NCBI GenBank assembly: GCA_043813585.1
Contig: JBDRKW010000002.1
Location: 19,182-83,181 of the forward strand
Source of the DNA: Candidatus Kerfeldbacteria bacterium
GTDB taxonomy: Bacteria > Patescibacteriota > Patescibacteriia > UBA9570 > XYC2-FULL-38-9
Direction of reading: 5' to 3'
DNA: 64,000 bases
Shown: piece after piece, positions 8,069 to 33,236 of the stretch
Layout of the letters: each line of letters starts with the position of its first letter
Numbering within the stretch: position 1 is the first letter of the stretch
The notes under the pieces: generated by a model
The model's database searches: none
The model's input: the letters and a program-made list of their open reading frames with translations, nothing else
Told to the model about the DNA's origin: nothing
Program-made: the position numbers and the translations under genes

Positions 8069-8779
8069 TCATGCATCCTCTTCTGGAGCCTCATATAAGA
8101 TATTCCGAATTTCTACGCGTTCAGAACTGCGTTTGGACCGGGTGGTTATGCGAAGCGAATTTAAACCTTCATGCAAATAGACATCCTCGATAAAACGGCC
8201 GTCCGGATCAACCGAAATGCCTTGGCCGTTGATCTCCACAATTGCTTCCGGTTCGGTTTTACCACGAATAGTGATCTTCCGGTCGGCCACAATCACATCC
8301 TCTGTCGGATACTCAATCACGAGCTCGGGCGGGCTTAAAAGCTGCACGATCTCCCAGGAAAAATAGATCACCAGGAGCAGCACGACAATCCCGGCAACCC
8401 CGAACCTCAACAGTCGCGGTATCAGAAGCGGTTTGCGCTGATGCGGCGTCGATCCCGTACCCACCGGCTTATGCCGCTTCGATTCCTGCTTGCGCTGCAC
8501 GTCCGGATGGAACGCGCGGATCTCCCTTTTGTAGTCCTCTTCGATCTTCTCCCACCGCACGCCAAGTTCTCGGCAATACAGCTTGAGATAATTGGTCACA
8601 TAGACCGGCGACGGAAGGTCGCTATACCGGCCGGACTCCAGCGCCTCCAGATACCGCTGCGGCACCTTAATCGCCCTCGCAATCTCTGTCATCACCAAGC
8701 CCTGTGACTGGCGCGCCACTCGAAGCTGTTCACCGACTGTTTGATGCTGCCGTACCGGCTGCTGTTTAAAATTCGACAT
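8069..8779 (-). CDS. RodZ-like cytoskeleton protein (XRE-type HTH, one TM, C-terminal beta domain)
   Basis: The track ORF begins at GTG 8866 inside ftsK. ATG at 8779 (MSNFKQQPVRQHQTVGEQLRVARQSQGLVMTEIARAIKVPQRYLEALESG) gives the HTH, followed by TM GVAGIVVLLLVIYF. Overlaps the ftsK 3' end by 14 nt. Confidence 0.6.
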   Translation of the reverse strand: MSNFKQQPVRQHQTVGEQLRVARQSQGLVMTEIARAIKVPQRYLEALESGRYSDLPSPVYVTNYLKLYCRELGVRWEKIEEDYKREIRAFHPDVQRKQESKRHKPVGTGSTPHQRKPLLIPRLLRFGVAGIVVLLLVIYFSWEIVQLLSPPELVIEYPTEDVIVADRKITIRGKTEPEAIVEINGQGISVDPDGRFIEDVYLHEGLNSLRITTRSKRSSERVEIRNILYEAPEEDA

Positions 8780-11126
8780 TATTGCGATCTTCAGGATCAA
8801 GATCCTCCTGCGACTCCTCATCAGAATACTCGTCTTCCGGCTCATCTGGCTCCTCCGGCTCTTCACCCGGCTCTCCGATCATCGATTCTCCCGCCGCCTC
8901 GTCCTGCACAAGAATTTCACGCGGCTTCGCTCCGTCTGCCGGGCCGATAAATCCTTCTTCTTCCAGGATATCCAGAATACGCGCTGCTCGCGCATACCCA
9001 ACCCGCAGCCGTCGCTGCAAGAGCGATGCGGACGCTTTGCCCGCCTGCAAAATCACCTCTTTGGCATCATCAAGTAATTCATCGCTGTCTTCAGCTCCAC
9101 CGCTCACGCCCGAGATGCCTCTTTTACCGGTATTAGATTCCGTTACATCGCTGTCATATTCCGGCTTCTCCCGATTCCGCAGATAATCCACGACAGCATC
9201 AATGTCCTTGCTTTCCAGATGCGCGCCCTGCAGACGCTTCGGCCTGGACAGGGTTGCATCAATAAACAGCATATCGCCGCGGCCAAGCAGCTTCTCCGCT
9301 CCGGAAAAATCCAGGATTGTGCGCGAATCCACCTGCGACGCCACGGAAAACGCAATGCGCGCCGGCATATTCGCCTTGATCAGGCCGGTAATGACGTTGA
9401 CCGACGGACGCTGCGTTGCCAGCACCAAGTGGATGCCGACCGCACGCGCCATCTGCGCCAGCCGCACAATCGCCGCTTCAACCGAATTTGCAGCAACCGA
9501 CATTAGATCTGCCAATTCATCAATCACGAACACAATATACGTCATGCGCTCGTCTTCATCGACTTTGCTGTTGTATTCATCAATGCTTCGCGCACCGGCC
9601 CGTTGCAGCATTTCATACCGCCGATCCATCTCCGCCACCGTCCATTTCAACGAATTCACTGTTTTTTCAATGTCAGTAATCACCGGCGTCAGCAGATACG
9701 GGATATCGTTATAGTTCGACAACTCCACGCGCTTTGGATCCACCAGGATAAACTTGAGGTCATCCGGAGAATTCTGGTACATGAGCCCGCAGATAACACT
9801 GTTGATACAAACCGACTTACCTGAACCGGTAGCACCCGCAATCAACAGATGCGGCATGCCTGATAAAGACGTGACAAACGGCTTGCCCGCAACATCTTTA
9901 CCTAAACACAGTGTGAGATTGTCTTTGCGTTTCTTGAATACTTTCGAAGTGAGGATCTGTCGCAGTGTTACTGTTGCAATCGCCTTGTTCGGCACTTCAA
10001 TGCCGACTAACGCCTTGCCAGGGATCGGCGCTTCAATCCTGATTGGAAATGCAGCCAGCGCCAACGAAATATCGTTATGCAATGTCGTGATCTGCGTAAG
10101 CTTTACACCCTCTTGCGGGGCCAACGTGTACTGCGACACCATCGGGCCGACATTTACTTCGCCCATCTCAACCGGAATACCGAAGCTCTCCAACGTCAAT
10201 CGAATTTTTTCCTTATTCTCCTCAATGTCGCCGCTGGTCGGCTTCTCATTGCGTTCCGATAGCAGGCTCAACGGTATTTCACTCCAGCCGCGCCGTTTAG
10301 ACCGCTTTGGAATAAACGACATCTGTTCCAGATCCTTGTCTGTCGCCTGCTCCTGCCCGGTATGCTCTACTTCTTTGGTGGAAAACGCCGGCTCTTCTTC
10401 CGGTTCGCCATCAACGCTCCCTTCTTCTGATTCATCGTCCTCATCTTCCTCGGCATCTTCTTTTGCTGCGCCGATCTTATACCCGTTCATACGCGCATGC
10501 AGCCGCGTCTTCAGCCAATTCCATACGCCGCCGAAAAAACCGAACTCGCGCACCCGCGTAATGAGCGCAGGTATCGACAGGCTCAACATTACAGAAACTG
10601 ATGCGATAAACAGGCCGAGCAACACGATAATCGCCACCCAGATGCCGGCGTATTTTATTAGCGGAATGGAAAACACGATTCCCAGGTAGCCGCCGCCTTT
10701 GCCGGCTTTAGCCGCTTCGGTGAAATCAACATACGGGATAAACAGGTGCAGAAGCGCCAGCCCGGACAACAGGAAAAACGCCAGTCCGATCCAGTTCCAC
10801 ATGCGGATTTCGTATTTATCGCCATTCAGGAACAGATACGCGAGCGCCGCAATGATAAACGGCACGATATACCGGCCCCAACCAAACACCCAGCCAAGGA
10901 TCTCGTCTACCCATACACCGAAATCGCCGGCCGCATTCACAAACGACAATAACGACACCGCTGAAACTGCGAATAAGAAAATAACGAGCAGTCCGCGCTG
11001 CGCACCGCCGTCATCTTCATCCCACGTATATTTCTTACGCTGCTGTTTTGGCTCCGCCTCTTCGTCCTTTGGTGGACGCCCGCGTTTCTTTGCAGGCTCT
11101 TGCTTTAAGGTCTTTCTCTTCGCCAT
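8766..11126 (-). CDS. ftsK: DNA translocase FtsK/SpoIIIE
   Basis: 786 aa. N-terminal TM helices, Walker A LLIAGATGSGKSV, gamma winged-helix (SLLQRRLRVGYARAARILDILEEEGFIGP), then an acidic tail. Confidence 0.95.
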   Translation of the reverse strand: MAKRKTLKQEPAKKRGRPPKDEEAEPKQQRKKYTWDEDDGGAQRGLLVIFLFAVSAVSLLSFVNAAGDFGVWVDEILGWVFGWGRYIVPFIIAALAYLFLNGDKYEIRMWNWIGLAFFLLSGLALLHLFIPYVDFTEAAKAGKGGGYLGIVFSIPLIKYAGIWVAIIVLLGLFIASVSVMLSLSIPALITRVREFGFFGGVWNWLKTRLHARMNGYKIGAAKEDAEEDEDDESEEGSVDGEPEEEPAFSTKEVEHTGQEQATDKDLEQMSFIPKRSKRRGWSEIPLSLLSERNEKPTSGDIEENKEKIRLTLESFGIPVEMGEVNVGPMVSQYTLAPQEGVKLTQITTLHNDISLALAAFPIRIEAPIPGKALVGIEVPNKAIATVTLRQILTSKVFKKRKDNLTLCLGKDVAGKPFVTSLSGMPHLLIAGATGSGKSVCINSVICGLMYQNSPDDLKFILVDPKRVELSNYNDIPYLLTPVITDIEKTVNSLKWTVAEMDRRYEMLQRAGARSIDEYNSKVDEDERMTYIVFVIDELADLMSVAANSVEAAIVRLAQMARAVGIHLVLATQRPSVNVITGLIKANMPARIAFSVASQVDSRTILDFSGAEKLLGRGDMLFIDATLSRPKRLQGAHLESKDIDAVVDYLRNREKPEYDSDVTESNTGKRGISGVSGGAEDSDELLDDAKEVILQAGKASASLLQRRLRVGYARAARILDILEEEGFIGPADGAKPREILVQDEAAGESMIGEPGEEPEEPDEPEDEYSDEESQEDLDPEDRNNVEF

Positions 11127-14445: not shown

Positions 14446-15930
14446 TTATTTCTTTGTGCTCTTTTTTTTCGTGCTCTGCTTCACTTTCTTGAGCCGTTTG
14501 CGCATTGCCTGATGATGCGCCTGGATCTGGTTGAGCAGTTCTGTTTCGTCGATAATATCATGCCGGCGGTTGGAAATGATAAATTCGCCGTTGATCATGA
14601 GGTCGCGGACATTACGGCCGCCGTGGGTGATCATGTTGCCGATTATGGTGACCGGCTTGTCTTCCGCATACGGGATAAAGCCGCGGTCGCGCACTTTCCA
14701 GAATGCCAGGTCTGCCTGGAACCCCGGCAGAATCCGGCCGCGCGTCTTCAGGCCGAGAATCTGCGCCGCATTATAGGTCATCATCTTAAAGAGCTCTTCA
14801 TAATAAACAACGTACTTGTCCTGGTGCATAATGCGGGCCTGTAGCGCTTCCGATAAAATATCGAGTGAGTTCTTGGAGATGACGCTGTCGGTTCCAAGTG
14901 CAATCTGCCCTTCCGCCCCGTACTTGGCAAACAACGGATATTGAAACTCGCCGCTTTTGTGCAGCTTGTTCGATGTCGGCAGGTGGACCACGCCGATATT
15001 GTACTTCTTAATCATCGCCACTTCCTCCTCCGTCAGGTTCACGCAATGGGAAAGAATCGAGCGGGAATTCGCCAGTCCGTACTTCTGTAGTGTTGGAATG
15101 GTAAGGTCATCGTGGACACGAAGGTTCTCCGCAACCGAATCGCGCGTTTCTGCCGCATGGGTGGTGAATATTGCCTTGTACTTCTTACAAATGGCTGCGA
15201 CCTTCTTCAGAATGGCCGGATCGGCCTTATGCAATGTATGCACTGCAACTGCGACCTGCGTACTGTAGTTTTTCTTATTCTTCAACAGCTTCTCTACATA
15301 CGCCGGCGTATTCTCCGGATGTGAATTCGATACGGCAGAAATTGCATTAATCACATTTTGATTCACCAATTTCGATGCCTCCTCAATCGCATCGAACACA
15401 GCATAGTGTGAAAGCGTTGTGGTGATGCCGTTCTTTTGCTCTTCCGTCAGGTCGCCGACTGCGGAGATGAAAAAATCCTCGTCCGTCATGTTGCTTTCGA
15501 GGTTGAACATGTCCTTCAACGACTTTTCCAGGTTCTCGCCCTTTTCCAGCATGAGCGACGAGCGCAGCATATACATGGGCGGATGGGAATGGGCGTTAAT
15601 GAAGCCCGGCGTGACGGCAAGGCCGCCGCGGAGTCCGGCATCAAAAACAAGATCGACTTTGTTCAGATCGATCTTTCTCTTTTTCGGATCAAAAATTTCG
15701 GTGATGACGCCGTTTTTGATATAGATGGACCGGTCCTTGATGACCTTCACATCCCCTTTTTCATCAGCCGTAATAATGTATTTCGGCCGGTGGATAACAA
15801 TGGTTTTTGCTTTTGGCGTTGACGTGAGGTGCGTGTAGCGTGACCGCTTCTCGCGCAGCGGAAATGGGATGCCGCCGTCCTTCACGCGCAGTATCGCATT
15901 CGCGATAGGTGCGAACTCTTTTGGTATCAT
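14446..15930 (-). CDS. metal-dependent amidohydrolase (chlorohydrolase/deaminase family; guanine- or SAH/MTA-deaminase-like)
   Basis: 494 aa. HxH metal motif GFINAHSH. Fold-typical downstream His/Asp residues. Sits in a purine-gene context. Confidence 0.7.
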   Translation of the reverse strand: MIPKEFAPIANAILRVKDGGIPFPLREKRSRYTHLTSTPKAKTIVIHRPKYIITADEKGDVKVIKDRSIYIKNGVITEIFDPKKRKIDLNKVDLVFDAGLRGGLAVTPGFINAHSHPPMYMLRSSLMLEKGENLEKSLKDMFNLESNMTDEDFFISAVGDLTEEQKNGITTTLSHYAVFDAIEEASKLVNQNVINAISAVSNSHPENTPAYVEKLLKNKKNYSTQVAVAVHTLHKADPAILKKVAAICKKYKAIFTTHAAETRDSVAENLRVHDDLTIPTLQKYGLANSRSILSHCVNLTEEEVAMIKKYNIGVVHLPTSNKLHKSGEFQYPLFAKYGAEGQIALGTDSVISKNSLDILSEALQARIMHQDKYVVYYEELFKMMTYNAAQILGLKTRGRILPGFQADLAFWKVRDRGFIPYAEDKPVTIIGNMITHGGRNVRDLMINGEFIISNRRHDIIDETELLNQIQAHHQAMRKRLKKVKQSTKKKSTKK

Positions 15931-15983
15931 AAAAGTATTATAGCAGAAATTGGATATTTTTTCCAGCCCCGTTTGGACTTAGA

Positions 15984-16020
15984 GTAAAAAAAGTCCCGGA
16001 TCTGTTGCCAGAGTCCGGGA
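15984..16020 (-). terminator. Rho-independent terminator downstream of the 438-aa secreted protein gene
   Basis: Minus strand reads TCCCGGA-13 nt loop-TCCGGGA followed by CTTTTTTT. Confidence 0.6.
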
Positions 16021-16045
16021 GCCCACCTCGATGGGGGGGGTTGGT

Positions 16046-17362
16046 TCAGCGCCTCCAGGAGCGGGTGAGCTGCTGGTCAAGCGCGTGGCCGTACTCGCAG
16101 GTGGTAGACGGTGCATAGACCGGATGGCCTTGCCCGCACCATCCTTTGACCTCGCCGACGTCGATGAGGCCGTTGTCGTAGTAGGAGTACGCCTGGCGCG
16201 GATGGTAGGAACGGTAGTACACCGCTCCCAGCCCGACCCACCACGGGTCGTACGGCGCGTACCACGGGTCCCAGTAGACCACGACGTAGTGACGCCGCGG
16301 AGGATACCAGCCCCAGCTCCACCACTGGTCGTAGCCGTAGCTGTACCGCCAGTTGTTGTGATGGTAGTGCCACGCGTTGTGGGACTGGTGCCAGCTATGG
16401 ACCGCCAGGTTGGTGTGGTGCAACGGCCTGTCCAGGTCGTAGTGCGGCCTGGGATGCGAGCTACCGCGCGCGTGGCCGTGTCCGCCGGTGGTACGGGAGT
16501 CGGGGCGGCGCTCGTGGCTGGTATGTGCCATCGATGTCCGGTCGCGCAGGTTGCTCGGCCGTGTGTTGCGGTAGAACTCACTTGGCCGCTGACCGGTGGC
16601 GTGGTCGTAGGTACGGCTGCGGTCGACGCGCTGCAGGCTCTGCGCCCGTTGCACGTTTCGATCCGACGGCGGATGATTCACGCGGTCAGTGGCCTGGGTG
16701 CGGCCGCTGCTGGACTGCCTGGTCGTGTCGCGCAGGTTGCCGTAGTGCTCGCTCGGCCGCTGGCCCGAGTTCGGGTCGAAGCTGCCGCGGTCGACGCTGG
16801 GCGTTCGGTCACTGCTTGGCTGCCTGGCCGTGTCGCGGTTGAAGTCGCGCGATCGGTCCGGCACCGCCTGACGGTGATCATACGTACCCATACTCGACGA
16901 ACGATCCCGCTGCTGGACGCTCCGGTCCGGCGTGCGCTCGGTTGAGCGGTCCGGATAGATGTTCCGCTGCGGGATTTGGCTCGTCGGCTGCCGGTACGCA
17001 TCGCGGGTCGGCGCGCGGTAGCTGCCGCGGCTATCGTGCGAACCCGATGCCGAACTCCGATCCGGCGTGCGATATGTGCTCCGGCTGTTCGAACCGGAAC
17101 TCGAATGCCCCGAACTGCGGCTCGGCGCGCGGTAGCTCGAACGGCCGGAGTGGCTCGTCGAACCGGAAGACCGATGCGCCGAACTGCGGCTGCCGGAACT
17201 CGAGTGCCCCGAGCTGCGATGCGCGGAGCTGTGCGACCGCTGGGCCGAATGCGAACTCCTCGAACTGCTGCGCTTCTTCTTGCCCTTGCCGGCGAACGCC
17301 GGAGCAGGCACGAGAAGCAGCAACGCCGCGAGGATCACAAAAAAACGATTTGCCTGGTTCAT
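16046..17362 (-). CDS. secreted low-complexity Ser/Arg/His-rich protein with an aromatic (Trp/Tyr/His) and Cys-containing C-terminal domain; no known family
   Basis: ATG at 17362 behind a GGAGG RBS. Signal peptide MNQANRFFVILAALLLLVPAPAFA. About 300 aa of SRSSHS/HRSSG-type repeats. C-terminus ...HYVVVYWDPWYAPYDPWW...GWCGQGHPVYAPSTTCEYGHALDQQLTRSWRR. Region GC is about 65-70%. Confidence 0.7.
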   Translation of the reverse strand: MNQANRFFVILAALLLLVPAPAFAGKGKKKRSSSRSSHSAQRSHSSAHRSSGHSSSGSRSSAHRSSGSTSHSGRSSYRAPSRSSGHSSSGSNSRSTYRTPDRSSASGSHDSRGSYRAPTRDAYRQPTSQIPQRNIYPDRSTERTPDRSVQQRDRSSSMGTYDHRQAVPDRSRDFNRDTARQPSSDRTPSVDRGSFDPNSGQRPSEHYGNLRDTTRQSSSGRTQATDRVNHPPSDRNVQRAQSLQRVDRSRTYDHATGQRPSEFYRNTRPSNLRDRTSMAHTSHERRPDSRTTGGHGHARGSSHPRPHYDLDRPLHHTNLAVHSWHQSHNAWHYHHNNWRYSYGYDQWWSWGWYPPRRHYVVVYWDPWYAPYDPWWVGLGAVYYRSYHPRQAYSYYDNGLIDVGEVKGWCGQGHPVYAPSTTCEYGHALDQQLTRSWRR

Positions 17363-17491
17363 GAGGCGTCCTCCCTGTATGGTGGCGTGATTTCGATGGT
17401 AGGTTCAGCCCCAAAACAACAATTTTCATTGCGCTTAAAGGGCCTGTTACCCTAACATCACAGAGTATATTTTTCAAGTCCAAATCTCCAG

Positions 17492-17531
17492 TAAAGAAAG
17501 AACCCCGATATCCGTCATGGAATCGGGGTTC
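17492..17531 (-). terminator. Rho-independent terminator after the small secreted paralog
   Basis: Minus strand reads GAACCCCGAT-12 nt-ATCGGGGTTC followed by TTTCTTT. Confidence 0.65.
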
Positions 17532-17606
17532 TCCGTTCGATATTGCCGCGTCATGCGGCTAAAGTTGTTGCGCCGGCGGCGGGTGTTCCGCGGCCGGCGG
17601 TTGTGT

Positions 17607-17936
17607 CTAGCGGCGGCCGGTGCGTCGCTCCCACTCGCGGGTGGCGTTCTGGTCAATTGACCTTCCGCACACCGACACCGAGCTGGGTGCGTACACCGGA
17701 CACCAGTTGGCATCCACCCCGCGCTGGTCGCCGGTCGTGTAGACCGGCCCGGCCTGGTTGCCCCACGGGTGGTAGTCGTACCGCGGGTACGCCGGCCGCG
17801 GGTGCGACCGGTGCACGACGACCACGTGGGTCGTGTGCCGCGGGCGGCCGTGGCGCGGACGCGCGTCGGCGATCGCCGGCACGACCATCATCAGAATCAG
17901 GGCAGCCAGGGCCAGGGCACTCGTGAACTTCTTCAT
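17607..17936 (-). CDS. small secreted His/Arg-rich protein, paralog of the C-terminal domain of the 438-aa protein
   Basis: ATG at 17936 after AAAGAGGAGAG RBS. Signal peptide MKKFTSALALAALILMMVVPAIADA. Shares the HVVVV...PW...VY...WCPVYAPSSVSVCGRSIDQNATREWERR motif with the upstream protein. Confidence 0.7.
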   Translation of the reverse strand: MKKFTSALALAALILMMVVPAIADARPRHGRPRHTTHVVVVHRSHPRPAYPRYDYHPWGNQAGPVYTTGDQRGVDANWCPVYAPSSVSVCGRSIDQNATREWERRTGRR

Positions 17937-18146
17937 TTCTCTCTCCTCTTTTTCGTCCATCGCGTCTGCGACGGGCGTATGTTACGAACGGAGTGTTCTC
18001 CCTCCTTCTTTAAGAAGGTTAAGTCGTCACATGACGACAAAAGAACAAAACAGTCTATCATAAAAAAATCAAAATGTCAATACCTAAAATCGGGCGTGGA
18101 ACATGTAGTGCTACTACGCCATGTTCCACATTTAATGAGAAAGAAT

Positions 18147-18178
18147 CAAAAAAGCCGGCAACCTCTGCCGGCTTTTTC
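18147..18178. terminator. bidirectional terminator downstream of rpoC
   Basis: AAAAAA-GCCGGCA-acctc-TGCCGGC-TTTTT. Confidence 0.75.
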
Positions 18179-18203
18179 TATAGCATTCAGAACGGTCTGC
18201 CGG

Positions 18204-22169
<3,966 letters not shown>

Positions 22170-27802: not shown

Positions 27803-30688
27803 TTATTTAACCCATCCGGAAGCAACACGCACCGCTCCGGTGAACGTCACAAACGGATAGACGGTCTCTTTCAGCTTGGTTCCTTTCGGCGAATAGATGT
27901 TTACCACCGCAGGGGTGCCTCCGTTGCTTCCAATGATATTCCGGTCTGCCCGTTTTTGGAACAAGTCACCGCCTGCGATAGTGCCGCCGTTCGCATACCA
28001 GGAACCGATGCCGAAAAAGCCTGTTTGGTAATACGTCGGCGTTCCGTTGCCTCGATAGACCGACTGGACGAACGCAGTTCCATGTTCCGGTACTGACAAG
28101 ATCACATCCGGATCGCCAGGGTCGAAGCTAGCCCGCGCCACGCGCACGCCGCCGCGGAACGCACTGTCATACGCTGAATATTGAGCCAGTAGTTCAGTGG
28201 TACGGCTGGAATAAATCTGCACAGTCGGCCCGCCGCCCTCGCCGGCCGATACGACAATCTCGTCGCGGCCTTTGCCGTTCCAGTCCACGCCGGCCACAAA
28301 CGCTCCGCCGGTAAACGCCTCGTCCAGCGCGTTAAACTGGAAGAGCAGTGTGCCGTCCATCTTGAATACGCGCACCTGCGGCCCGCCTCCCGGACCCGGC
28401 GCCGTAATGATCTCATCCACACCATCATCGTCAACGTCTCCGGTAGCGACGCGCACCCCTCCGCGGAACCCAGCATTATATGCCAGGAATGACGATAACA
28501 GTTCCCCATCCGGCTCAAACACCCGCACCCACGGATCTCCGCCCCGATCCAGGCCTACCACGATCTCATCGCGCCGATCGCCGTCAACATTGCCGACTGC
28601 AACTTCCAACCCGTTCGTCGCTTCAACCGGGAACGCATACCATGAATAGAGGTTTGCTTTTTTCTTGTAGCTCCAGACGCTCACGAGCGGACTCCCTCCC
28701 GGGCCGGCAGCCATGACCACGTTCTCCCGGGGATAAAAACGTTTATTCTTTATCTTGGAACTTTTCTTGTTGCCCAGGTCGTCCTTTACTTTTACGCGAT
28801 ATCGGTATTTCACGCCGTTCTTCACTTTTGTGTCCGTATATTTTGACGTTGGGTGTGAAATAACCCCTTTCTTCTTCCATGAACACGAACTGCACCCGTA
28901 TTTCTTGCGGAAAACCTGGTATTTCTCCGCATGCTCTCCTTTTACTTTGTCCCAGTCCACTTTTATCCCGTTCGCGGTTCGCGACAGCTCCAGGTTGGTG
29001 GGTTTTGTGGTTTCCGTATCAATGACATATTCAAAACTCGCAGCTTCGGTGGAAGCGTTGCCGTCATTGTCTTTTGCTTTCACGCGAAGGTAATAGGAGA
29101 CCTCATTCCCCTCAATCGCCGACGGTTCATAATTCCGTTTCGTCTGGAACGTTCCTTTAGTCACCGGATCGGCATGCGCGTTCGTGCCGAAGTAGACATA
29201 ATATCCGGCAATCCCGTCGCCGTCATTTGCGGCTGACCACGTGAAATACGGCCTGGTATCAGCCGACCGCTCGCCGTCATTGAATGTTCTCGACTTTGAA
29301 GAGCTGTTGTACGCCGTAACGGTTGCCGGCGTCGTCGGGTTTTCCAGCGAACCGATGCCGTCCAGCGCTATATTCGCGTCTGCGCGGCCGCTGCCAAAAT
29401 TAGACCCGAGTCCTATGTCAACCGTATTTTTCGTTATCACTTCGCGCAGTTGGGAACGCGTCAGGCTGGATTCTTCAGAAAGAAGCAGCGCCGCTATCCC
29501 GGACACGATCGGCGTCGACATTGATGTGCCGGATTCATAATCATACGAAGCGGTAAACCCGTACGCAGCATTGATGTAAACAGTAGAGAATATCTGGTAT
29601 CCGGGCGCGGATAAATCCACACAGTTCGAACCGTAGTTGGAAAACGCTGCCGCTTCCATGGAGCTCTTGTGCGCCGCTACGCCAATGACGCTGTCATAGC
29701 ACGCAGGATAAAACGGCGTGGAATTAATATTGATTCCATCATTGCCTGCCGCTGCAACAACAAGCACCCCGTTATCCTTTGCATAGGTTATTGCGGCCTC
29801 CAGCAACGCGCTCTCTCCCGCACCGCCCAGGCTCATATTGATAATATCGGCGCCGTTGTCCACGGCATATTCAATGCCTTCAATAATGCCGCTGTCCAGG
29901 CCTCCTCCTTCATCATCCAGCACGCGGACGGCCATCAGCTTGGTCTTCCATGCAACGCCGGCAACGCCTTTGCCGTTATTGCCCACTGCACCGACAAGCC
30001 CGCCGACGTGCGTACCGTGCGTGACGCCGTTATCCGCGCCGTTCTGGCTGTCATTATCCACACCATCCGGCTGCGGATTTGGATTTTTATCATCATCCAC
30101 AAAATCATACCCGTTCACATCATCGATGTACCCGTTGCTGTCATCGTCAATGCCGTTGTCGGCAATTTCGTCGCCGTTCAACCATAGGTTATCTTCAATA
30201 TCGGGATGGTCGGTATCGATGCCGGAATCAATAATAGCGATAACCACACTGTACGTGCCGGTCTGATCTGCCCAGGCATCCTCTGATGAAATGCCTGCAT
30301 CTGCGTCAGAATGATGCCACTGGTTGGCGTAGTAGGTATCGTTGGGAGTGACGGTTGCATGCCTTTTGTAATTCAGTGCGGCTTCCTCGACCTCCGGATT
30401 GTCTTCCAGTTGTTCAAGCACCTCTTCAGCTGTCTTGTTTTCCGGAACACGGACGCGCTGCACGCGGTTCCGCAGTGATTGCTCGCCCCGACCTTCATCC
30501 TTCAACGTCACAAGAACAGTATCGTTTTCGTATTCCTTGCCGGCCAATGCCCGGTTTAAACGGTGGCCTTTTTCTGGCGATGCATCTACGCGGTCAGTGC
30601 AAATAAAAACAGCAGCGAGAACAACTGCCGCTGACGCGACAATGCCGCATCCCAGCGCCAATCGGGAACGAAATGCCGTATGTATCAT
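27803..30688 (-). CDS. large secreted subtilisin-like (S8) serine protease with FN3-like and C-terminal FG-GAP/VCBS-type repeats
   Basis: The track start is TTG 30724. ATG at 30688 gives a signal/anchor MIHTAFRSRLALGCGIVASAAVVLAAVFIC. Catalytic triad contexts DSGIDTDHPD, HGTHVGG, GTSMSTP. Repeats GDVDGDRRDEIVVG and GDVDDDGVDEIITAPGPGGGPQVRVF. Confidence 0.85.
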   Translation of the reverse strand: MIHTAFRSRLALGCGIVASAAVVLAAVFICTDRVDASPEKGHRLNRALAGKEYENDTVLVTLKDEGRGEQSLRNRVQRVRVPENKTAEEVLEQLEDNPEVEEAALNYKRHATVTPNDTYYANQWHHSDADAGISSEDAWADQTGTYSVVIAIIDSGIDTDHPDIEDNLWLNGDEIADNGIDDDSNGYIDDVNGYDFVDDDKNPNPQPDGVDNDSQNGADNGVTHGTHVGGLVGAVGNNGKGVAGVAWKTKLMAVRVLDDEGGGLDSGIIEGIEYAVDNGADIINMSLGGAGESALLEAAITYAKDNGVLVVAAAGNDGININSTPFYPACYDSVIGVAAHKSSMEAAAFSNYGSNCVDLSAPGYQIFSTVYINAAYGFTASYDYESGTSMSTPIVSGIAALLLSEESSLTRSQLREVITKNTVDIGLGSNFGSGRADANIALDGIGSLENPTTPATVTAYNSSSKSRTFNDGERSADTRPYFTWSAANDGDGIAGYYVYFGTNAHADPVTKGTFQTKRNYEPSAIEGNEVSYYLRVKAKDNDGNASTEAASFEYVIDTETTKPTNLELSRTANGIKVDWDKVKGEHAEKYQVFRKKYGCSSCSWKKKGVISHPTSKYTDTKVKNGVKYRYRVKVKDDLGNKKSSKIKNKRFYPRENVVMAAGPGGSPLVSVWSYKKKANLYSWYAFPVEATNGLEVAVGNVDGDRRDEIVVGLDRGGDPWVRVFEPDGELLSSFLAYNAGFRGGVRVATGDVDDDGVDEIITAPGPGGGPQVRVFKMDGTLLFQFNALDEAFTGGAFVAGVDWNGKGRDEIVVSAGEGGGPTVQIYSSRTTELLAQYSAYDSAFRGGVRVARASFDPGDPDVILSVPEHGTAFVQSVYRGNGTPTYYQTGFFGIGSWYANGGTIAGGDLFQKRADRNIIGSNGGTPAVVNIYSPKGTKLKETVYPFVTFTGAVRVASGWVK

Positions 30689-30695
30689 AGGTTTC

Positions 30696-30724
30696 AGTAT
30701 ACCAGTCAACGGGCGGTGTTTCAA
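30696..30724 (-). promoter_or_regulatory. sigma70-type promoter TTGAAA-17-TATACT driving a leaderless protease mRNA
   Basis: On the minus strand, -35 TTGAAA (30724-30719) and -10 TATACT (30701-30696). The ATG at 30688 lies only 7 nt past the -10. Confidence 0.5.
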
Positions 30725-30726
30725 TA

Positions 30727-30758
30727 AAAAAAGAAGACCCGGTTCCTCCGTCGGGTCA
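30727..30758 (-). terminator. Rho-independent terminator overlapping the stop codon of the zinc-ribbon gene
   Basis: Minus strand reads GACCCG-10 nt-CGGGTC followed by TTCTTTTTTT. Confidence 0.65.
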
Positions 30759-31403
30759 TCGCTTCGGCTCGAGGTAGAACAGGCCGCATTGGCCGCATCG
30801 TCGGGCCCGGACAGTCTTCCTCGTCTTCACGTCTACTCCCGTGAATCCCTCCGACGCCTTCATGGTGGCGCCGCAGTCGTTATTCGGGCAGTAGTAGCCG
30901 TTTTCCTTGGTCGGACCGTACGCAACCCGCATGCCCGCGGTATTGATCTCCGCACGTGGCGAGATCTTCTTCATCAGCCAGGCGAAGAACCCGAGCACCT
31001 TGACGAACAGCCAGAACCGCGGCTTCTTCGGAACCGGCCGAAGGGCCGACTTGTCGGAAGCGCGTCCCCCGGGACCGAGTCCCTCGGGATTCGTCTCCGA
31101 CTGCCGGTCAGATGGATACGGCGGCCGCGGCTTGGCGGGTTCGTTCGGGAGCAACTCCGCCTTCATCACCTTGAACGGCTTGCTGCAACGCGGGTAGCTG
31201 CAGACATGGACCGTGATGATCCGGGTCGAATCATTCTGGTCGCGAACCTGCTGCGTCTTACAGTCGTTCCATACGAGCACCCGGCCGCAGGAGGGACAAT
31301 TCTCAACCTTGCCGGTCGCGTAGAGGACAGGAATGTTCTCGGCGTCGATCATGGCGAGCGGTCCCATATTGAAGTCATGCTCACCATTGGAAGAGCTGGA
31401 CAT
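30756..31403 (-). CDS. hypothetical membrane protein with two CxxC...CxxC zinc-ribbon motifs flanking one TM helix
   Basis: GAGGAG RBS 7 nt before ATG 31403. CPSCG...C..C (N-terminal) and CPNNDCG...CGQCG (C-terminal). TM FWLFVKVLGFFAWLM. GC-rich with GC3-biased codons. Confidence 0.6.
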   Translation of the reverse strand: MSSSSNGEHDFNMGPLAMIDAENIPVLYATGKVENCPSCGRVLVWNDCKTQQVRDQNDSTRIITVHVCSYPRCSKPFKVMKAELLPNEPAKPRPPYPSDRQSETNPEGLGPGGRASDKSALRPVPKKPRFWLFVKVLGFFAWLMKKISPRAEINTAGMRVAYGPTKENGYYCPNNDCGATMKASEGFTGVDVKTRKTVRARRCGQCGLFYLEPKR

Positions 31404-31461
31404 GATTGACTCCTCAAAATCATGGTTGGTGGGGCTTCATCTTAGCGATAACGCGCAAAAA

Positions 31462-31500
31462 GTCAACGGACGTTGACACAGGCGCCAAAGTTGCTATGAT
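31462..31500 (+). promoter_or_regulatory. palindromic operator GTCAAC-GGAC-GTTGAC overlapping a TTGACA-16-TATGAT promoter, in the divergent region between the zinc-ribbon and acidic-protein genes
   Basis: gtcaacggacgttgac at 31462-31477. -35 TTGACA at 31473-31478, -10 TATGAT at 31495-31500. Confidence 0.5.
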
Positions 31501-31639
31501 GAGCCGGTTGTGTTCATTTATAACTAACCAGTAGGGAACATTGTGGGCAAAAAGGAACTGCCCTTTTATTGTTTACAGCGTCCCCTGCTGGTGCCACGCA
31601 GGTTAACAACTTCAACCGAACGAGAGAGGACACAAGTAC

Positions 31640-32344
31640 ATGAACTCACTGCAGCGCGCATACTTCCACCTGTTCCTGGGCATGGTGCTCAAGGATGGGA
31701 TGGACCTGGACGAGGAGGCCCTGAACGGCTTCTGTATGACGATCCGTAAGGACAACGGCGAGACGACCGAGGTGGTCGAGGAGCCGGAGCCCGAAGAGCC
31801 CGCGGCGGAGCCGGAGGAGCCCGCGGCGGACGAGGTGGTCGAGGAGACCCCGGAGGATGGCGAGCCAGAGGTGGTCGACGAGGTGGCCGAGGAACCCGCG
31901 CCCGAGCTGGATGCGGAGCCCGAGGCCGAGGTGGTCGACGAGGTGGCCGAGGAGCCCGTGGCGGAGCCCGAGCCCGAGAACGACGGCAGCGACGAGGTGG
32001 TCGAGGAGCCGGAGCCCGAAGAGCCCGCGGCGGACGAGACCACGCCCGAGGAGACCCCGGAGGACGACGGCAACAACGATGCCGATCCCGCCGAGGAGCC
32101 CGAGGGTGGCGACGAGGAGACCCCGGACGAGGAAGCCCCCGCCGAGGAGCCCGAGGGTGGCGACCCCGAGCCGGAGGACGACGGCAACGACGAGGAGTCC
32201 GAGGACAACGGAGAGCCCGAGGACGAGAGCGGCGAAGACGACCCCGATGACGGGGATGGTGATGACAACAACGGCGGGGACGACGATGACCCGGCCGGCG
32301 ACGAGGACGGTGGCGACGAGCCCAATGAGGACGACGTCACCTGA
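31640..32344 (+). CDS. hyper-acidic Glu/Asp/Pro-rich tandem-repeat protein with a short structured N-terminus
   Basis: AGAGGA RBS before ATG 31640. MNSLQRAYFHLFLGMVLKDGMDLDEEALNGFCMTIRKDNGETT, then about 190 aa of EVVDEVAEEPAPE.../EEPEPEEPAA repeats. About 60-nt DNA tandem duplications. GC about 68%. Confidence 0.55.
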   Translation: MNSLQRAYFHLFLGMVLKDGMDLDEEALNGFCMTIRKDNGETTEVVEEPEPEEPAAEPEEPAADEVVEETPEDGEPEVVDEVAEEPAPELDAEPEAEVVDEVAEEPVAEPEPENDGSDEVVEEPEPEEPAADETTPEETPEDDGNNDADPAEEPEGGDEETPDEEAPAEEPEGGDPEPEDDGNDEESEDNGEPEDESGEDDPDDGDGDDNNGGDDDDPAGDEDGGDEPNEDDVT

Positions 32345-32615: not shown

Positions 32616-33236
32616 ATGACAAAAATCCTCCCGAGGAAGAAACAAAAAATCCTCCAGTATCTCAAGGACTATATCGACGATCGCGGGTACGCCCCGACGC
32701 TAAAAGAGATCGCCGATGAATTCAAACTCTCTTCTACCGCGACCGTTCATGAACATATAGGGTATCTGGAAGAACACGGTTTTATCAGACGCAATGATGG
32801 CGGGTTGGAAATAATGGACACACAACCGGAAGGGCAGGACGAATCGTTTACAGAAGGCAGCTCCGTTCAACTTCCAATCGCCGGACTCATTACAGCTGGT
32901 GTACCGATTGAAGCGGTCGAAGATAAAACCGAGATGCTCACCGTTCCAAAAGAACTCGCACGCCGTCCGGACTGCTACGTCCTCAAAGTCAAAGGCGATT
33001 CCATGATAGAAAGCTTTATCGACGATGGAGATTACGCCGTTATCCAAAAACAGGACTACGCAAGCGATGGCGATATCATTGTTGCGCTCCTCGATGATGG
33101 TTCGGCAACTCTAAAAGAGTATCATCGTGAGAAACAATACGTTCGCCTGCAACCGCGGAACAGAAATTACGAACCGCTTCGCGTGAAAAACGTCGTCATA
33201 CAGGGCAAAGTAGTGGGAATCATCAGAAAGTTCTAA
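32616..33236 (+). CDS. lexA: LexA repressor
   Basis: 206 aa. N-terminal wHTH (YAPTLKEIADEFKLSSTATVHEHIGYLEEHGFI). Ala-Gly cleavage site (PIAGLITAG). S24 peptidase with GDSM Ser and downstream catalytic Lys. Confidence 0.93.
   Translation: MTKILPRKKQKILQYLKDYIDDRGYAPTLKEIADEFKLSSTATVHEHIGYLEEHGFIRRNDGGLEIMDTQPEGQDESFTEGSSVQLPIAGLITAGVPIEAVEDKTEMLTVPKELARRPDCYVLKVKGDSMIESFIDDGDYAVIQKQDYASDGDIIVALLDDGSATLKEYHREKQYVRLQPRNRNYEPLRVKNVVIQGKVVGIIRKF

Follow-up and report, generated by a model that had tools for sequence, protein, structure and literature searches.

A pair of GC-rich orphan genes with a common C-terminal module at the rpoC locus of a Candidatus Kerfeldbacteria genome

The sequence studied here is a stretch of 64,000 nucleotides (positions 19,182 to 83,181 of contig JBDRKW010000002.1, GenBank assembly GCA_043813585.1; hereafter the window), which originates from the metagenome-assembled genome (MAG) of an uncultured Candidatus Kerfeldbacteria bacterium, a member of the Patescibacteria or Candidate Phyla Radiation (CPR). 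Between the start of an amidohydrolase gene (15930) and the stop codon of rpoC (18204) lies a GC-rich segment of 2.27 kb (15931..18203), referred to in the following as the cassette, with two genes, both on the minus strand. The larger gene (16046..17362) encodes a protein of 438 amino acids (aa; NCBI MFH1425878.1, hypothetical protein), and the smaller one (17607..17936) a protein of 109 aa. The two proteins share a module at their C-termini. Very probably, the two genes are real, their products are exported paralogs and orphans, and the cassette as a whole was inserted between its neighbours.

Reading frames, signals and layout of the two proteins

Concerning the start of the small gene, the NCBI record (MFH1425879.1, hypothetical protein) begins at 17960 and comprises 117 aa. 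The ATG at 17936 is favoured over it here, because this start is preceded by a Shine-Dalgarno site and followed by a basic n-region (MKK), whereas the 117-aa form carries an acidic extension, MDEKEERE. Read from the sequence, the Shine-Dalgarno site of the small gene is GAGGAG (17948-17943), with a spacing of 6 nt to the ATG, and that of the large gene is AGGGAGGA (17376-17369), with the ATG 7 nt downstream. Each gene is also followed by a predicted intrinsic terminator on the same strand: behind the large gene (15985..16012), a CCCGGA...TCCGGG hairpin (16012-15995) precedes a T-run, and behind the small gene (17490..17533), a stem of around 15 bp (17533-17498) precedes UUCUUU.

Both proteins begin with what, by inspection, looks like a signal peptide of the Sec type. 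In the large protein it covers aa 1-24 (17291..17362, minus strand) and reads MNQANRFFVILAALLLLVPAPAFA, with the predicted cut after AFA and GKGKKK following; its layout is MNQANR-FFVILAALLLLV-PAPAFA, then G. In the small protein it reads MKKFTSALALAALILMMVVPAIADA, followed by RPRH, with the layout MKK-FTSALALAALILMMVV-PAIADA, then R. On inspection, both show the features of substrates of Sec and signal peptidase I, i.e., a basic n-region, an h-region of 10-15 aa, an AxA-type site and no lipobox Cys; no Cys was seen near the cleavage site of either protein. The initial annotation, made from the letters of the window and its open reading frames (ORFs), had ascribed to each gene a strong Shine-Dalgarno site, a Sec signal peptide and a terminator of its own, and all three were found again, the signal peptides by inspection.

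Upstream of the small gene, a sigma-70-like promoter is predicted at 18052..18080 on the minus strand (TTGACA-17-TAGACT with TG), with a structured leader of around 115 nt downstream of it. This leader (17937-18055, minus strand) folds better than every shuffle (z = -3.9) and holds two perfect palindromes, GTCGTCATGTGACGAC (18038-18023) and CCTTCTTAAAGAAGG; the former is unique within the window and may serve as an operator or form a regulatory hairpin. For the large gene, no promoter passed the promoter scan, and a weak extended -10 candidate (TTGAAA-17-TGTTAGGGT) was found by eye.

The signal peptide of the large protein is followed by a long polycationic, hydrophobic-poor region (aa 25-300; 16463..17290, minus strand), which is probably disordered, judging from its composition and its degenerate in-frame repeats. 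Its net charge is +28, the residues I, L, V, M and F amount to 5.8%, and S/R/H/G/T/P/Q/D/N together make up 83%. The repeats comprise YRxPxR (three times), SGHSSSGS, GQRPSE[HF]Y and NLRD (twice each), and the periods of the DNA repeats in this region are multiples of 3. A His/Trp/Tyr-dense segment (aa 301-356; 16295..16462, minus strand), in which windows of 20 aa contain up to 6 His and up to 8 aromatic residues, leads over to the shared module; the last 138 aa of the protein contain 13 Trp, 18 Tyr and 14 His. The small protein is simpler, with a signal peptide (aa 1-25), a His/Arg/Pro tract of around 18 aa and the module; its mature form has 84 aa and a net charge of +8. Each protein possesses two Cys.

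Overall, His amounts to 6.8% in the large and 5.6% in the small protein, and Ser and Arg to 16.7% and 13.5% in the large one. The large protein is Ser/Arg-rich with local His-dense tracts, a correction to the label His/Arg/Ser-rich, under which it had been described initially. The estimate that around 70% of it is of low complexity stands in part: the polar, hydrophobic-poor region makes up 63% of the protein, whereas low complexity in the strict sense is confined to approximately aa 25-120. At the C-termini, neither an LPxT[GAS] nor a PEP motif is present in either protein, only a basic RR end, and a hydrophobic anchor is likewise absent, with no hydrophobic run of more than 2 residues among the last 40 aa.

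The shared C-terminal module and the search for relatives

The module occupies aa 357-438 of the large protein (16049..16294, minus strand; the extent of the profile match) with the pattern HYVVVY...HPRxAY..YD...WC-x4-PVYAPS-x2-C...DQxxTRxWRR. In the small protein it was located by BLASTP, profile and Smith-Waterman comparison at residues 44-113 of the 117-aa numbering (17622..17831, minus strand). BLASTP aligns the two C-termini over 71 columns with 27 identities (38%; E=2e-8), and their Smith-Waterman score is 102, whereas 2000 shuffled sequences gave 39.5 +/- 6.2 and none of them scored as high (z ~10). The similarity of two genes on the same strand, which had first been noticed from the sequence, thus persists on proper alignment, and the large and small genes are regarded as paralogs on this ground. 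The N-terminal parts of the two proteins are wholly different, and the module is situated at the extreme C-terminus of both.

Over its length of around 70 aa, the module contains, in this order, a HYVVVY or HVVVVH stretch, HPRxAY..YD and W-C; PVYAPS, which is invariant, comes next, and after the second Cys a DQxxTRxW(x)RR element closes the protein or lies close to its end. The aromatic/Val stretches are beta-prone, and the last element may be helical. Concerning the motif as initially formulated, PVYAPS and DQxxTRxW(x)RR are indeed common to both proteins, whereas the two Cys are not aligned in columns: their spacing is C-x12-C in the large protein (W-C-x4-PVYAPS-x2-C) and C-x10-C in the small one (W-C-PVYAPS-x4-C). 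A disulfide closing a Cys-x10-12-Cys loop around PVYAPS is plausible, yet a guess, because the Cys columns of the paralogs do not align.

For both proteins, Pfam contains no family at E<=1 and PHROGs none at E<=0.1; in NCBIfam (E<=10), only matches below threshold were obtained, on the signal peptide of the small protein (16.6 and 14.4 bits, the cut-offs being 40 and 35). The decisive negative comes from a full HMMER profile scan, in which around 15 billion public proteins were represented by 1.84 billion cluster representatives. It gave four matches, two of them self matches and two of them repeat proteins, so that no true relative was found among these representatives, in agreement with the initial impression that the module belongs to no known family. 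One of the repeat proteins (P0003) was rejected as repeat-inflated chance, being a translated tandem repeat that matches many unrelated Pfam families. The other one (P0004), a WG-repeat protein (PF14903) matched at E=7e-7, was rejected as well, the E-value being summed over 6 units and the hhalign probability being 13.8%. A stretch of the large paralog (NGL..VG....G.PVYA) does resemble one WG repeat unit; with this one weak unit-like stretch and no Pfam match for either protein, membership in PF14903 (WG_beta_rep) was rejected and the match is treated as chance.

On clustering at 90% identity, both proteins are singletons. When the small protein and the complete large one served as queries in word-index searches, self matches alone came back, although such negatives are unreliable for queries of biased composition, a search of this kind with the 136-aa Trp/Tyr/His-rich C-terminal fragment having missed its own 438-aa parent. 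No relative appeared in a profile search of the sequences in the PDB, and nothing was found by blastn against phages, by tblastn against plasmids or by alignment-based pattern scans of genome and viral contigs. A degenerate DNA motif (PVYAPS-x9-DQxxTRxW) recovered both copies of the window and none in metagenome contigs, and a third paralog exists neither in the window nor in nine related loci. Judged by these searches, the module constitutes a new, unclassified protein family with two members, both orphan, whose architecture is nothing out of the ordinary among secreted surface proteins. CPR MAGs commonly contain orphan hypothetical proteins, and the present finding amounts to one more uncharacterised pair of such proteins.

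Since GC-rich DNA is poor in stop codons and gives long ORFs in several frames, the two frames could in principle be spurious, with the antisense ORFs (16031-16945 and 17543-17926, plus strand) or nothing at all being expressed; the orphan status of the pair would suit this explanation, which is nevertheless very improbable. The GC content of the three codon positions is 0.58/0.59/0.82 in the large and 0.66/0.53/0.87 in the small ORF, with the maximum at position 3 as in genes, whereas in the overlapping antisense ORFs the maximum falls on position 1 or 2. When both C-terminal DNA segments are translated in all frames, the sense pairing scores 102 and any other pairing at most 68. Among 23 identical residues in ungapped blocks, 11 differ in their codon, including a switch between TCT and AGC for a Ser within PVYAPS; together with the sense-frame score this argues for conservation acting at the protein level in the sense frame, surviving even a change between the codon blocks of the six-fold degenerate Ser. 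A stop-free run of 438 codons was reached in none of 2000 shuffles of the 1.3-kb segment, the Shine-Dalgarno sites, signal peptides and terminators are correctly placed in both genes, and the NCBI annotation of the source MAG uses the identical two frames. For these reasons both ORFs are taken as real coding frames, and the antisense ORFs, whose expression would have overturned the initial annotation, are not favoured.

A possible role at the cell surface

The architecture of the pair, in which a variable passenger precedes a conserved C-terminal module, suggests a role outside the cell. Each gene would be transcribed separately, and for both products export via Sec would be followed by cleavage by signal peptidase I. 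An outer membrane is absent from CPR cells, many of which are episymbionts, as this organism probably is, too. With Sec export, no covalent anchor and no outer membrane, the proteins would be either released or held non-covalently. The module may thus bind or anchor the proteins non-covalently to an anionic surface outside the cell, which could be polymers of the own envelope or the surface of a host cell; this reading is suggested by a conserved module at the extreme C-terminus, differing N-termini, Sec export and the lack of an LPxTG, PEP or hydrophobic anchor. In the large protein, the module would be preceded by the 276-aa disordered Ser/Arg region, with regularly spaced Tyr/Arg 'stickers', and by the His/Trp/Tyr tract, such that the cationic region could add multivalent electrostatic and aromatic adhesion and the protein might serve as surface 'glue', adhesin or matrix protein of an episymbiont. 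The positive charge of the disordered region (+28) and of the small mature protein (+8) as well as the aromatic content are counted in favour of this proposal.

Several points weigh against it. Homologs, informative neighbours and a usable three-dimensional model are all lacking, and the module is unlike any known wall-binding domain in Pfam (E<=1). AlphaFold2 gave a confidence (predicted local distance difference test, pLDDT) of 39.5 for the module from the two-sequence alignment and of 47.0 for the small protein from its single sequence, both below the interpretable range; only the helix of the signal peptide and a short C-terminal helix rise above noise. The Cys, as described above, do not align, and from two sequences conservation cannot tell residues of binding from residues of the fold. 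Furthermore, disordered, GC-rich orphan ORFs can be evolutionarily young, with weak function or none. Taken alone, the mechanism, i.e., a non-covalent surface-binding or anchoring module with a polycationic, sticky passenger, is accordingly doubtful; the combined statement, that the pair are real, exported orphan paralogs in an inserted cassette with a polycationic surface-binding or adhesive role, is put forward tentatively as the likeliest explanation, with a chance somewhat short of even.

The initial annotation had thought of a metal-, mineral- or cell-wall-binding module, a suggestion drawn from composition. As extracellular metal-binding or buffering proteins, the two paralogs would employ their His tracts and their Cys pair as chelators of Ni, Zn or Cu. 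His-dense tracts do lie directly N-terminal of the module in both, at approximately aa 303-335 of the large protein (4-6 His per window of 20 aa) and with 5 His in RPRHGRPRHTTHVVVVHRSH of the small one, and each protein has its two Cys; however, total His content (6.8% and 5.6%) is low, the tracts are not aligned between the paralogs, and the aligned module retains a single His, that of HPR, whereas the dominant Ser/Arg polycation is a non-chelating composition. The pair therefore also falls outside the His-rich metal-binding proteins (Hpn-like proteins, metallochaperones with His tracts), and no link to metal genes was found: the island is devoid of a riboswitch, and among the Pfam-annotated neighbours neither a metal regulator nor a dedicated metal transporter is recognisable. 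RcnB/YohN and BA14K resemble the pair as small exported proteins, BA14K also in its paired Cys and aromatic residues; the initial annotation had considered RcnB and BA14K and set them aside, rightly so, since neither they nor other metal families of Pfam and NCBIfam match at E<=1 to 10 (Pfam: E<=1). Metal binding is for these reasons considered unlikely. A secreted antimicrobial or host-damaging effector appears more improbable still. Peptides of the indolicidin and tritrpticin type insert into anionic membranes, and the cationic Trp/Arg/Pro-rich stretches of the large protein (WWSWGWYPPRR, DPWYAPYDPWW) could do likewise; high positive net charge, Sec export and the bacteriocin-like size of the 84-aa mature small paralog would fit. 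Yet the Trp-rich stretch is missing from the small paralog and hence lies outside what is conserved, genes for immunity, processing or export are absent next to the pair, and the resemblance is one of composition.

The proposed surface-binding role can be compared with known systems. Similar to proteins with WxL, GW, choline-binding or SLH modules of monoderm bacteria, the pair combines Sec export, a variable N-terminal passenger and an aromatic-rich module at the extreme C-terminus with the absence of a covalent sorting signal; there are, however, differences: none of these families matches in Pfam (E<=1), and the putative binding module is much shorter (around 70 aa), single-copy and equipped with a Cys pair. 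In contrast to LPxTG/sortase and PEP-CTERM proteins, the two proteins have neither the C-terminal motif nor the hydrophobic helix, only the basic RR end. The disordered region recalls FUS-like low-complexity regions, mussel foot proteins and silaffins in its Ser/Gly spacers, regularly spaced Tyr/Arg, high positive charge and few aliphatic residues, although this likeness is compositional only, without homology, and silaffins are Lys-rich and heavily modified. If the role proposed here holds, the module would represent a new attachment module of an episymbiotic CPR bacterium, in a group in which attachment to the host is largely unknown.

Insertion and base composition of the cassette

The window as a whole has a GC content of ~0.52. 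Within the cassette, values of 0.64-0.69 are reached at 16050-17250 and of 0.67-0.72 at 17550-18000 (up to 0.72 across both peaks). The GC-rich island of the initial annotation is thus present over both ORFs, whereas it is not uniform: high GC is restricted to the two coding regions and ends at the ORF borders, the 244-nt spacer between the genes having a GC content of 0.52 and the outer flanks of 0.44-0.48. The coding sequences amount to 0.665 (438 aa) and 0.686 (small gene), compared to 0.43-0.575 in host ORFs. A codon comparison with the host genes shows GC at synonymous third positions (GC3s) of 0.815 and 0.893 in the cassette against 0.605 in the pooled host set, with single host ORFs ranging from 0.46 to 0.74. 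The cassette genes thus surpass the host by 14-16 points in GC and by 0.2-0.3 in GC3s, and both exhibit the atypical base composition and codon usage by which horizontally acquired genomic islands are recognised. Part of the excess is due to the proteins themselves. Since the same two proteins written in host codon usage would already reach a GC content of 0.61 and 0.63 (host genes: ~0.53), roughly 60% of the excess is ascribed to amino-acid composition and the remainder is synonymous.

The cassette is situated within core genome, the gene order of the window being GroEL, RecA, FtsK, GMP synthase, an IMPDH-family gene, the amidohydrolase gene, the cassette, rpoC, rpoB, a Mur ligase, MgtC, a subtilase and LexA. 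Relatives were compared via the amidohydrolase locus, with identities of 74% ('Microgenomatus auricola', L001), 69% (Kerfeldbacteria AQU-08, L002), 71% (L003) and 45% (a distant Patescibacteria MAG, L004). In L001, L002 and L004 the rpoC stop lies at most ~90 nt from the amidohydrolase start, and this adjacency argues that 15931-18203 is an insertion between rpoC and the amidohydrolase gene in the present lineage. In L003, whose genome has a GC content of ~44%, the same junction holds a different insert of 1.8 kb and 60-66% GC (8244-9821 of that locus, minus strand), which encodes an unrelated, acidic orphan of 525 aa in the opposite strand. The junction of rpoC and the amidohydrolase gene therefore seems, from these loci, to take up GC-rich orphan genes repeatedly, and such an unrelated orphan in a relative hints at a recurrent gene source in reduced genomes. 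What is most unusual about the pair is its compositional anomaly, together with the recurrent presence of GC-rich orphans, unrelated to one another, at the rpoC junction.

Further GC-rich orphans were noticed elsewhere. A second pair is located in the window at 30756-32344, between the subtilase (27803-30724) and LexA (32616-33236): a Cys-rich protein of 215 aa (30756-31403, minus strand; GC 0.61, GC3s 0.79) that contains several CxxC-like pairs and an extremely acidic, Glu/Pro/Asp-rich protein of 234 aa (31640-32344, plus strand; GC3s 0.89). Neither has a match in Pfam or PHROGs, and on comparison the acidic protein proved unrelated to the insert of L003. In a further relative (L007), within a locus of ~45% GC, an orphan of 394 aa and ~60% GC (68-1252) lies near the amidohydrolase gene; the gene order differs there, with a 162-aa ORF and no rpoC.

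Concerning the origin of the cassette, it is possible, at a little under an even chance, that the pair was acquired horizontally as one block from a GC-rich donor (genome GC ~62-66%), in which the paralogs had already diverged; such an origin fits any function. It would agree with the insertion relative to the conserved adjacency of rpoC and the amidohydrolase gene, with GC3s values (0.82-0.89) beyond the host range (0.46-0.74) and with the finding that synonymous sites are saturated between the two copies, both of which nevertheless have a high GC3. It would also agree with a large survey of gut microbes, in which species-specific orphans normally match their own genome in GC and GC3s (PMC11293555), such that the excess observed here is atypical for native orphans. 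On the other hand, no GC-rich organism with a homolog exists among the ~15 billion proteins, no tRNA was found in the window, and neither an integrase or other mobility gene nor flanking direct or inverted repeats, terminal repeats or a target-site duplication mark the cassette, whose ORFs are the two genes only. The spacer and flanks are host-like (0.44-0.52), amino-acid composition alone explains ~60% of the GC excess, and the recurrence of unrelated GC-rich orphans in the window and in relatives may be a sign of a lineage-internal process. Such a process might keep certain genes GC-rich; the pair at 30756-32344 (GC3s 0.79-0.89) and the orphan of L007 would be in line with it. Of the alternatives offered initially, horizontal acquisition or codon skew driven by amino acids, both appear to contribute, the insertion and the GC3s speaking for the former and the share of amino-acid composition for the latter, whereas neither a donor nor a mark of mobility is seen.

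In their lack of homologs, their rarity and their high predicted disorder, the two proteins resemble other species-specific orphans of prokaryotes (PMC11293555; PMC5389847), in which high GC accompanies disorder-promoting residues (PMC5389847). Typical orphans are short and match their genome in GC and GC3s (PMC11293555), whereas the large member of this pair has 438 aa and the two are diverged paralogs with export signals and a GC excess; long, exported, paralogous orphans with GC and GC3s far above the genome are contrary to the usual picture of orphans (PMC11293555). It is an improbable, more far-reaching combination of statements that permissive core junctions of Kerfeldbacteria-like genomes repeatedly receive cassettes of GC-rich orphans, with a GC content 14-20 points higher than that of the genome, and that, at the same time, the module is a previously unseen extracellular binding domain attaching a CPR episymbiont to a host or mineral. 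If true, recurrent cassettes would imply either a pool of GC-rich donors, be they host, virus or plasmid, or a mechanism within the lineage that generates or maintains them.

As to RNA elements, Rfam yielded only matches below threshold, on terminator hairpins of rpoC (e.g., FsrA with 35.7 bits, the gathering score being 80). On the other side of the cassette, a promoter-like site (TGGAAA-17-TATAAT) is found at 15930-15965, in front of the amidohydrolase gene; its -10 box ends 6-7 nt before the ATG, and no Shine-Dalgarno site is present, such that the amidohydrolase mRNA looks leaderless, a state created or retained downstream of the insert. At the rpoC border (18204-18330), RpoC ends in a low-complexity tail of around 40 aa rich in Lys, Glu and Ala, the length and sequence of which vary in L001, L002 and L003.

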